From assembly GCF_003334255.1 (NCBI RefSeq), contig NZ_QOWU01000135.1: a stretch of DNA of 2,400 nucleotides, one strand, 5' to 3'. Both the position numbers and the translations under genes were made by a program. Below are positions 1-2,400 of the stretch, piece by piece; position 1 is the stretch's first letter, and every line of letters starts with the position of its first letter. This DNA comes from Escherichia coli (GTDB lineage: Bacteria > Pseudomonadota > Gammaproteobacteria > Enterobacterales > Enterobacteriaceae). A model generated the notes under the pieces. That model saw only the letters and a program-made list of their open reading frames with translations. It made no database searches and was not told where the DNA came from.

Positions 1-22
1 AAAAACGAGTATTTTTAGTCAT
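1..22 (-). CDS. IS3-family transposase OrfA, N-terminal 7 codons only (MTKNTRF...), 3' part outside window
   Basis: ATG at 22-20 on the minus strand, preceded by AGAGG (minus strand, positions 35-31) at suitable spacing. The translation MTKNTRF is the characteristic start of IS629/IS1203-type OrfA. Only 22 nt are in the window, so the call rests on context. Confidence 0.5.
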
Positions 23-30
23 CCTGTTTA

Positions 31-35
31 CCTCT
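31..35 (-). promoter_or_regulatory. Shine-Dalgarno (AGAGG) for the IS3-family orfA
   Basis: AGAGG on the minus strand, 8 nt upstream of the ATG at 22-20. Confidence 0.45.
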
Positions 36-101
36 TTCTCAGGGAGTTTAGTCTCCAGGATTTCCGGGGCGGTTCAATCTGATATAGACGGACATCTAAG
101 T

Positions 102-527
102 ATGGAATTACAGGACTGGCGAAAAGAACCTCGTAAAAACTATTCGAATGAATTCAAACTTCGTATGGTGGAACTGGCATCACAACCTGGAGCTTGTGTT
201 GCACAGATTGCACGTGAAAATGGCGTCAATGATAATGTTATTTTCAAATGGCTCAGGCTCTGGCAGAACGAAGGGCGTGTTTCGCGGCGTCTTCCGGTAA
301 CGACCTCTTCTGACACTGGCGTTGAATTATTACCTGTAGAAATAACGCCGGATGAGCAGAAAGAACCTGTGGCGGCCATTGCGCCGTCTTTATCCACTTC
401 CACTCAGACCAGAGTCAGTGCCAGTTCCTGCAAGGTGGAATTCCGTCACGGTAACATGACGCTGGAAAATCCATCGCCAGAGCTGCTCACGGTGTTGATC
501 CGTGAACTGACCGGGAGGGGGCGATGA
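102..527 (+). CDS. tnpA: IS66-family TnpA (Orf1), small helix-turn-helix DNA-binding protein, 141 aa
   Basis: ORF track 102..527. The N-terminal segment NYSNEFKLRMVELASQPGACVAQIARENGVNDNVIFKWLRLW has the transposase-type HTH signature. It sits immediately upstream of tnpB and overlaps it by ATGA. The start at 102 is the first in-frame ATG but has a weak RBS; the frame stays open upstream, so the true start is uncertain. Confidence 0.85.
   Translation: MELQDWRKEPRKNYSNEFKLRMVELASQPGACVAQIARENGVNDNVIFKWLRLWQNEGRVSRRLPVTTSSDTGVELLPVEITPDEQKEPVAAIAPSLSTSTQTRVSASSCKVEFRHGNMTLENPSPELLTVLIRELTGRGR
514..518 (+). promoter_or_regulatory. Shine-Dalgarno (GGAGG within GGGAGGGGG) for tnpB, embedded in the 3' end of tnpA
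   Basis: GGAGG at 514-518, 5 nt upstream of the tnpB ATG at 524. Confidence 0.55.
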
Positions 528-874
528 TCTCGCTCCCATCAGACACTCGAATCTGGCTGGTTGCCGGCGTTACTGATATGCGTAAATCCTTCAACGGTCT
601 GGGTGAACAGGTACAACATGTGCTGGATGAGACCCCCTTCTCCGGTCACCTGTTCATCTTCCGTGGCCGACGGAGTGACATGATTAAAATCCTCTGGGCT
701 GATGCTGATGGTCTGTGCCTGTTCACCAAACGCCTGGAGGAAGGCCAGTTTATCTGGCCTGCGGTGCGTGACGGTAAGGTATCCATTACCCGCTCGCAGC
801 TGGCAATGCTCCTCGATAAGCTGGACTGGCGTCAGCCAAAAACATCCCGTCTTAACGCACTGACAATGTTGTAA
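524..874 (+). CDS. tnpB: IS66-family Orf2 / TnpB accessory protein, 116 aa
   Basis: ORF track 524..874. The translation MISLPSDTRIWLVAGVTDMRKSFNGLGEQVQ...IFRGRRSDMIKILWADADGLCLFTKRLE is the highly conserved IS66 Orf2 sequence. The ATG at 524-526 overlaps the tnpA TGA at 525-527, and a strong SD lies upstream. Confidence 0.9.
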   Translation: MISLPSDTRIWLVAGVTDMRKSFNGLGEQVQHVLDETPFSGHLFIFRGRRSDMIKILWADADGLCLFTKRLEEGQFIWPAVRDGKVSITRSQLAMLLDKLDWRQPKTSRLNALTML

Positions 875-904
875 AAATGTCATGGCCGGATTATAAAAAC
901 GGTC

Positions 905-2400
905 ATGAGTCGGAAATACCTCATTCGTATCACTGAGCTGGAAAGGCTGCTCTCTGAGCAGGCTGAAGCCCTCCGTCAGAAAGACCAGCAACTGAGTCTG
1001 GTTGAAGAGACGGAAGCCTTCCTGCGCTCTGCACTGACACGTGCCGAAGAAAAGATCGAAGAAGATGAACGGGAAATAGAACATCTGCGGGCTCAGATAG
1101 AAAAACTGCGCCGGATGCTGTTCGGTACCCGTTCTGAAAAACTGCGTCGTGAAGTTGAACTGGCTGAGGCTCTGCTGAAACAACGTGAACAGGACAGCGA
1201 TCGTTACAGTGGGCGGGAAGACGATCCTCAGGTTCCCCGCCAGTTGCGACAGTCGCGCCATCGTCGTCCGTTACCGGCACACCTTCCCCGTGAAATACAC
1301 CGCCTGGAGCCAGAAGAAAGCTGTTGCCCGGAGTGTGGCGGTGAGCTGGATTATCTGGGGGAAGTCAGCGCTGAACAGCTGGAACTGGTGAGCAGTGCCC
1401 TGAAAGTGATCCGCACAGAACGGGTAAAAAAAGCCTGTACAAAATGTGACTGTATTGTTGAAGCACCGGCGCCGTCCCGCCCGATAGAGCGTGGTATCGC
1501 GGGCCCCGGATTACTTGCCCGCGTGTTAACGGGAAAATACAGCGAACATCTGCCACTGTATCGTCAGAGTGAAATCTTTGCCCGCCAGGGTGTCGAACTG
1601 AGCCGGGCCTTACTCTCCAACTGGGTTGACGCGTGCTGCCAGTTAATGACACCGGTGAATGATGCCCTGTACCGTTATGTAATGAACACCCGCAAGGTTC
1701 ACACTGATGACACACCGGTAAAGGTACTGGCACCGGGTCAGAAAAAGGCGAAAACAGGGCGTATCTGGACGTATGTCCGGGATGATCGCAATGTGGGTTC
1801 GTCATCTCCTCCAGCGGTCTGGTTCGCGTACTCGCCGAACCGGCAGGGGAAACACCCGGAGCAACACCTCCGCCCCTTCCGGGGTATCCTGCAGGCGGAT
1901 GCGTTCACAGGTTACGACAGGTTGTTCAGTGCAGAACGTGAAGGTGGTGCACTGACAGAAGTTGCGTGCTGGGCCCATGCCCGGCGAAAAATCCACGATG
2001 TATACATCAGCAGCAAAAGTGCGACGGCAGAAGAAGCCCTGAAGCGAATCAGTGAACTGTACGCCATCGAGGATGAAATACGGGGATTACCGGAGTCAGA
2101 GCGTCTTGCCGTCAGGCAGCAGCGAAGCAAAGTGTTACTGACGTCGCTGCATGAATGGATGGTGGAGAAGAATGGTACGCTGTCGAAAAAATCCAGACTG
2201 GGCGAAGCGTTCAGCTATGTACTGAATCAGTGGGATGCCCTCTGTTATTACAGTGATGACGGTCTGGCGGAGGCGGATAATAATGCTGCGGAAAGAGCGC
2301 TTCGTGCAGTCTGTCTCGGAAAGAAAAACTCTTATGACCTTTGTCAAATATTGAGCCCAAAAAGACCTTACGCAGCTCCGGGAGCTTCGTTATATCGCGG
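905..2400 (+). CDS. tnpC: IS66-family transposase TnpC (DDE transposase), 3'-incomplete in window; the last ~23 codons diverge from the conserved family sequence
   Basis: Frame 2 is open from the ATG at 905 to the window end, and my own translation confirms it. The N-terminal region is a charged coiled coil (ELERLLSEQAEALRQKDQQL...IEHLRAQIEKLRRMLFGTRSEKL) containing the IS66 FGxxSEK motif. Candidate catalytic residues are D at 1706-1711 (HTDDTPV), D at 1898-1900 (ILQADAFTGY) and E at 2291-2293 (NNAAERALR). The start has no obvious SD. Confidence 0.85.
   Translation, partial: MSRKYLIRITELERLLSEQAEALRQKDQQLSLVEETEAFLRSALTRAEEKIEEDEREIEHLRAQIEKLRRMLFGTRSEKLRREVELAEALLKQREQDSDRYSGREDDPQVPRQLRQSRHRRPLPAHLPREIHRLEPEESCCPECGGELDYLGEVSAEQLELVSSALKVIRTERVKKACTKCDCIVEAPAPSRPIERGIAGPGLLARVLTGKYSEHLPLYRQSEIFARQGVELSRALLSNWVDACCQLMTPVNDALYRYVMNTRKVHTDDTPVKVLAPGQKKAKTGRIWTYVRDDRNVGSSSPPAVWFAYSPNRQGKHPEQHLRPFRGILQADAFTGYDRLFSAEREGGALTEVACWAHARRKIHDVYISSKSATAEEALKRISELYAIEDEIRGLPESERLAVRQQRSKVLLTSLHEWMVEKNGTLSKKSRLGEAFSYVLNQWDALCYYSDDGLAEADNNAAERALRAVCLGKKNSYDLCQILSPKRPYAAPGASLYR
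1322..1453 (+). other. Cys-rich zinc-ribbon motif within TnpC (CCPECGG ... CTKCDC)
   Basis: Translated cysteines at codons starting 1322, 1325 and 1334 (SCCPECGG) and at 1436, 1445 and 1451 (CTKCDC), spaced as in the IS66 transposase zinc-finger domain. Confidence 0.6.

Follow-up and report, generated by a model that had tools for sequence, protein, structure and literature searches.

Members of the IS66 family of insertion sequences generate an 8-bp target duplication, and the IS66-mediated deletion in pAt15955 provides an example of how homologous recombination between IS copies leads to replicon fusion or deletion (PMC6778807). The intact reference copy of the family member ISEc23 used here (L002) comprises 2,532 bp, starts with GTAAGCG, has inverted termini beginning GTAAGCGT, and is framed on both sides by a perfect 8-bp target duplication, ACTTAAGA. 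IS629/IS1203 of E. coli and Shigella, which belong to the IS3 family, measure 1,310 bp, end in TG...CA with 25-bp repeats, and carry an orfA/orfB frameshift with an ALIL pseudoknot. A link of IS629 to genomic deletions via the excision enhancer IEE has been described (PMC9943667). Leclercq and Cordaux reported in 2012 that the group II intron E.c.I4 homes into the transposase genes of IS629, IS911, ISEc16 and ISEc31, and argued that IS-plus-intron tandems of more than 3 kb should undergo recombination more readily (PMC3522654).

The stretch of E. coli DNA analysed here (2,400 nucleotides, referred to as the window) joins an IS629/IS1203-like end directly to an ISEc23 copy. It represents ordinary IS-on-IS wreckage, already known in kind, within an IS-rich mosaic of plasmid and chromosomal sequence; the ISEc23 segment is an internal fragment with a different insertion sequence to its left and to its right, each of which is a lineage switch point. 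The entire window is found exactly at positions 5097-7496 of contig L003 (GCA_001299315.1, CYUC01000007.1, 130,057 bp), and its features are the following:

1 to 76, minus strand: left end of the IS629/IS1203-like element of the IS3 family (100% identity to IS1203-family copies)
52 to 76, minus strand: left inverted repeat (IRL) of this IS3-family element, TGAACCGCCCCGGAAATCCTGGAGA (both element ends compared on L003)
77 to 101, plus strand: residue of the ISEc23 leader, ISEc23 positions 61-85 (alignment to the intact copies L001, L002 and L004-L010)
102 to 527, plus strand: ISEc23 tnpA, 141 aa, HTH_Tnp_1 (ORF list, RefSeq WP_000422741.1, Pfam)
524 to 874, plus strand: ISEc23 tnpB, 116 aa, TnpB_IS66 (ORF list, RefSeq, Pfam)
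905 to 2330, plus strand: 5' part of ISEc23 tnpC (DDE transposase), interrupted by ISEc45 at ISEc23 position 2314
2329 to 2330, no strand: CT dinucleotide common to both ISEc45 junctions, the shared core (junction sequences)
2331 to 2400, minus strand: end of ISEc45 (IS110 family), downstream of its transposase gene (RefSeq, Pfam)

The assignment to ISEc23 is based on the order tnpA-tnpB-tnpC, three genes on one strand with the stop codon of tnpA overlapping the start of tnpB in the tetranucleotide ATGA at 524-527, and on the presence of the IS66-family domains HTH_Tnp_1 and TnpB_IS66 as well as LZ_Tnp_IS66, zf-IS66 and DDE_Tnp_IS66 (Pfam), with RefSeq product names in agreement. Furthermore, positions 77-2400 are 100% identical to four plasmid records, annotated as IS66-like TnpA, TnpB and 'ISEc23 family transposase', in which ISEc23 is likewise split by ISEc45 and its left end is intact. 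An earlier reading of the sequence (the sequence-only reading) had taken the element for an ISEc8-like member of the IS66 family; the family was right, the closer relationship was not. Its placement of the tnpA start at position 102, behind a 25-bp spacer that follows the IS3-family terminus at position 76, agrees with the open reading frame 102-527 and its RefSeq counterpart. What the window copy shares with the plasmid ISEc23 copies is thus the gene order and the full identity over 77-2330; it differs from intact ISEc23 in that positions 1-60 are gone and tnpC is split by ISEc45.

In intact ISEc23, tnpA is preceded by a leader of 85 bp beginning GTAAGCGTAAACTG, in accord with the earlier statement that IS66-family elements carry several tens of base pairs at this place. 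All nine intact copies compared, which lie in three different outside flanks, have an extra 60 bp (GTAAGCGTAAACTG...GACGCCC) upstream of the part retained in the window, such that window position 77 corresponds to ISEc23 position 61, and the window copy has lost positions 1-60 and with them the left inverted repeat. The base preceding the breakpoint is C in every intact copy and A in the window, where it is the last base of the IS; the breakpoint therefore lies exactly at 76/77, and the IS3-family terminus ends 25 bp ahead of tnpA. With up to three mismatches allowed, the left repeat of ISEc23 was not matched anywhere in the window, a repeat search of the window disclosed no hidden IS66 repeat, and the first 60 bp of ISEc23 were absent from the 13.5 kb of L003 examined. 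The GTAAGCG terminal repeats, present at both ends of the reference copy, are accordingly not both found here: the left end, beside which one side of an 8-bp target duplication would lie, is gone, and the right repeat at L003 9090 is present but comes from another IS66-family variant. The ISEc23 copy in the window thus belongs to the family as a remnant and not as an intact element. The sequence-only reading had held that 77-101 contains no IS66 inverted repeat and that the IS3-family element cost the IS66 element its left end, and both points stand, the loss amounting to precisely 60 bp.

The element on the left is, by every property compared, of the IS3 family. In a BLAST search of 5,426 complete E. 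coli genomes, positions 1-76 matched IS3-like elements of the IS1203 family with 100% identity (E = 3e-35), among them copies in several O157:H7 chromosomes annotated as 'IS3-like element IS1203 family transposase'. The minus strand of this segment opens with TGAACCGCCCCGG..., the IS629/IS1203 terminus, and the orfA start codon at 22-20 (protein start MTKNTRF) leads leftwards out of the window. On L003 the element extends over 1593-5172, a length of 3,580 bp made up of a 1,310-bp IS and a 2,270-bp group II intron in orfB. Its termini are TG...CA with imperfect 25-bp repeats agreeing in 22 positions, the two ends being TGAACCGCCCCGG... and ...CCGGGGCGGTTCA, and the IS parts are 95.2% (positions 1-524) and 98.7% (516-1310) identical to a 1,310-bp IS1203 copy of O157:H7. 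Outside the window, Rfam identified the ALIL frameshift pseudoknot at L003 4721-4837 (121.5 bits) and Pfam the rve (DDE) domain on the orfB fragment, and sister copies carry the RefSeq note 'programmed frameshift'. The spliced length, the identity of 95-99%, the TG...CA ends, the 25-bp repeats and the orfA/orfB frameshift are those of IS629/IS1203 from E. coli and Shigella, whose sister copies generate 3-bp target duplications; the present copy differs from them in the 2,270-bp intron in orfB, in its unrelated flanks, and in the absence of a duplication. The last feature points to a rearranged IS3-family copy and not to a different family.

That 1-76 looks like an IS3-family end by chance, or that 77-101 forms a complete short IS66 end, are two ideas without appreciable probability. 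A chance likeness was ruled out by the match over all 76 positions (E = 3e-35), and is countered as well by the continuation of the element on L003, where it measures 3,580 bp and includes the ALIL pseudoknot and an ORF with the rve domain; 77-101 is too short for a full end, since intact ISEc23 needs 85 bp ahead of tnpA. A neighborhood of this kind was also encountered in O157:H7 strain 4276 (L045 1577-1640), where only 61 bp, themselves a piece of IS629, separate an IS1203 copy from the intact left end of an IS66-family element. Nesting or close adjacency of the two families has thus occurred repeatedly in E. coli.

The exact junction at 76/77 is rare and was seen in one NCBI draft assembly only. 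Nothing matched it contiguously among the 5,426 complete E. coli genomes, the PLSDB plasmids, the GTDB representatives or the JGI metagenomes; the exact 24-mer across it, GGCGGTTCAATCTGATATAGACGG, returned zero matches in the GTDB representative genomes and JGI metagenomes, and BLAST of window positions 1-160 against the complete E. coli genomes and PLSDB gave nothing beyond two-piece, non-adjacent matches.

On the right-hand side, the match to intact ISEc23 copies stops from position 2331 on, where ISEc45 splits tnpC at 2330/2331, past ISEc23 position 2314; the tnpC frame continues into ISEc45 to give a chimeric product of 522 aa. This chimeric TnpC is specific to the ISEc45-split copy and occurs in twelve contexts, one of which is L003. 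ISEc45 has its transposase gene beyond the window, on the minus strand (L001 6506-7639, annotated as ISEc45-family in RefSeq); this gene encodes the Pfam domains DEDD_Tnp_IS110 and Transposase_20. Together with the CT core at both junctions, GAAAAACT / CTTATGACC and CATACCAT / CTTTATG, and the absence of a target duplication, the DEDD transposase identifies ISEc45 as a member of the IS110 family. The insertion in ISEc23 tnpC was examined over L001 6254-7700 and over window 2315-2400, with the junction at 2330/2331. In an approximately 90%-identical IS66-family variant (plasmids L018 and L020-L022), ISEc45 occupies the same insertion point, which fits sequence-specific targeting by this element. 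A near-copy of the target CTCGGAAAGAAAAACT (window 2315-2330), CTCAGATAGAAAAACT, with 14 of 16 positions in common, is located at 1092-1107 within tnpC; this site carries no insertion and is probably a chance similarity.

Beyond ISEc45, L003 holds a 218-bp terminal piece of an IS66-family element, which ends in an intact right repeat at 9090 and is followed by a Tn3-family resolvase and transposase and by the IncFII repA gene. This right-hand part of the contig is identical to the plasmid lineage L018 and L020-L022, in which the IS66-family element shares only about 90% identity with the window; on L003, both the 3' remnant and the right repeat accordingly derive from an IS66-family variant of approximately 90-94% identity. 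L003 equals the L001-type ISEc23 over 5173-8872 and the L022-type plasmid over 7434-13569. The overlap of these two perfect identities places a lineage switch inside ISEc45 (L003 7434-8872, window approximately 2338 onwards), and it follows that the right inverted repeat near the ISEc23 fragment is not its own.

The far side of the IS3-family element bears on the kind of event that removed the left end of ISEc23. The left flank on L003 is chromosomal, with cfa, ribC, mdtK, ydhQ, two tRNAs, ydhR, and a truncated gene of the FAD/NAD(P)-binding, ydhS-like type, while the right flank consists of ISEc23, ISEc45, the Tn3-family element and the IncFII repA. The sequence-only reading had proposed to look for the missing IS66 end on the far side of the IS and for a 3-4 bp target-site duplication around the IS. 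Neither was encountered: the place is taken by the truncated ydhS-like gene, and the flanks are CGG and ATC (...gccaCGG, the IS, ATCtgat...), without the 3-4 bp duplication of the IS3 family. As a control, the flanks of five sister composites of this element and its intron were compared for duplications. Two of them split a single gene and have 3-bp duplications (CCA/CCA and AAC/AAC); the other three have different DNA on each side and no duplication, and in two of these the flanking genes clearly differ. The window copy belongs with the sister copies having unrelated flanks and no duplication. The unrelated far flank and the absent duplication together define the event on L003 as truncating, not simply nested. 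Of the two possibilities named beforehand, a nested or a truncating insertion, the second thus holds for the contig as deposited, where the IS sits at a rearrangement by which ISEc23 lost its left end, and the first fails unless the contig is chimeric.

Along these lines, the junction probably arose by transposition followed by recombination between this IS and a copy in ydhS, with ISEc23 left behind as a dead internal fragment, and we hold this history with good confidence. An IS629-like element, already bearing its intron, would have inserted between positions 60 and 61 of a plasmid ISEc23, within the leader, its left end forming the junction; transposition into the leader is well supported, because the junction uses the exact IS terminus. 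Homologous recombination with a second IS copy in ydhS would then have linked chromosome and plasmid, and detached the remnant from the left 60 bp of ISEc23 and from the plasmid DNA upstream of them. Such recombination between two IS copies is the most likely cause of the unrelated far flank; the order of events, as well as the preference for recombination over deletion or assembly error, is what we infer from the pattern. The reciprocal junctions should read ...TTAGACGCCCATC / TGAACCGCCCCGGG and GGGGCGGTTCA / CGG plus the 3' part of ydhS. With the IS66-mediated deletion in pAt15955 (PMC6778807) this scheme has in common a single IS between non-matching flanks; different from that case, no parental copies were observed here and the structure is that of a single draft contig.

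The draft status of the assembly weighs against this history. The contig crosses two repeats of 3.58 kb and approximately 1.44 kb, each of them a lineage switch point, and one or both of the repeat-spanning joins may be assembly artefacts. In addition, the ydhS-IS junction, which creates a fusion ORF, occurs in one contig only, BLAST with it found no identical insertion in the complete genomes, and a synthetic reciprocal junction (ISEc23 1-63 plus the IS629 right end) gave only two-piece matches there. It is therefore conceivable, if on balance unlikely, that a simple nested insertion was turned into a chimera during assembly through the shared 3.58-kb repeat, a second IS copy residing in chromosomal ydhS; the real plasmid would then carry ISEc23 1-63 on the far side of the IS and a duplication of ATC. 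Two lineage switches at repeats within 4 kb of a draft assembly are in line with such an error, and the 3,580-bp IS-plus-intron composite is often present in multiple copies in E. coli (PMC3522654). Short-read assemblers, however, usually break at multi-copy repeats instead of joining through them, and a contig with the reciprocal junction was not found, in a search limited to complete genomes.

A one-step route would dispense with the second IS copy altogether: an IS629-like copy beside ydhS on the same replicon would have deleted the DNA up to ISEc23 60/61, by intramolecular transposition or by the activity of IEE. The absence of a target duplication and the unrelated flanks are as expected for such a deletion, and IS629 is associated with IEE-promoted genomic deletions (PMC9943667). 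This route nevertheless appears improbable. It needs a plasmid segment already linked to the chromosome at ydhS, for which no support was obtained here. Deletions of the IEE type usually remove the IS or make use of microhomology, whereas the IS terminus at 76 is intact to the last base. Transposition followed by recombination between IS copies is thus retained as the preferred history. That the contig is also correct throughout, an IncFII-type plasmid segment being joined to the chromosome at ydhS via a single 3.6-kb IS629-intron tandem with a second crossover in ISEc45, is a more tentative proposition to which we would grant slightly less than an even chance. If true, it would be a concrete case in which insertion sequences enlarged by an intron, and IS110-family insertions at specific sites, serve as preferred recombination points at which replicons are fused and reshuffled.

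A further point in this context is the intron carried by the IS3-family element. The 2,270-bp insert in the IS629-like orfB encodes a reverse transcriptase/maturase (Pfam RVT_1 and GIIM) and fits the Rfam model Intron_gpII, including a match to domain V. By analogy with the introns of PMC3522654 it is probably of the E.c.I4 type: the RT/maturase ORF, domain V, the site in an IS629-like orfB, and a tandem of more than 3 kb are shared with E.c.I4-type introns in IS3-family transposase genes, the difference being that the intron here lies outside the window and is likened to them on general features. The 3,580-bp composite, covered to at least 80%, occurs in 1,405 complete E. coli genomes, and the full-length copies among the matches listed are 99.3-99.7% identical. 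Fresh 3-bp target duplications were seen around the composite at differing sites, and the IS thus still appears to transpose with the intron aboard.

As to the consequences for ISEc23, the remnant cannot transpose, given that one terminal repeat is missing and tnpC is split. The earlier expectation that loss of the left repeat immobilises the copy is therefore sound but redundant: the tnpC split at 2330/2331 also exists in plasmid relatives with an intact left end, which means that this ISEc23 copy was already dead before its left end was lost. Strict consensus scans for promoters and terminators over the junction and the intact ISEc23 leader returned nothing. A relaxed scan of the intact leader gave one weak sigma-70-like candidate (8/12, TTGGTA-N18-TATAGA) at ISEc23 positions 43-72; the truncation would remove its -35 hexamer, for which the same scan offered no substitute in the window. 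Expression of tnpA and tnpB may be altered by the loss of the left end. In the IS3-family elements IS911, IS2 and IS3 an outward-facing -35 hexamer resides in the right repeat, not in the left. The end abutting tnpA is the left end of the IS3-family element, with its transposase gene pointing away from tnpA, so that by analogy an IS-borne outward promoter is not expected at this junction.

Beyond annotation, the locus is of little importance: the ISEc23 copy should be annotated as a remnant that is non-autonomous, lacks the left repeat and has its transposase gene split, and the IS629-like element indicates either the breakpoint of a rearrangement or a possible misassembly that joins chromosome and plasmid. 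For users of this draft genome it matters that the contig mixes chromosomal and plasmid sequence at a repeat, which calls for a check ahead of replicon assignment or plasmid typing.

Two further observations concern the ISEc23 segment and its plasmid surroundings. In comparison with the intact ISEc23 of L002, 41 of the 44 mismatches upstream of the ISEc45 junction fall within window positions 491-947, which span the end of tnpA, tnpB, and the start of tnpC, and the remainder is nearly identical to the L002 copy; this distribution suggests a recombinant patch among ISEc23 variants. Furthermore, the plasmid contigs L028 (2249-3539) and L025 present an empty site with no IS66-family element, where the resolvase is followed by an intact ORF of 90 aa, one of 43 aa, and a DUF6622 gene; relatives that carry the IS seem to retain just 66 aa of the 90-aa ORF.
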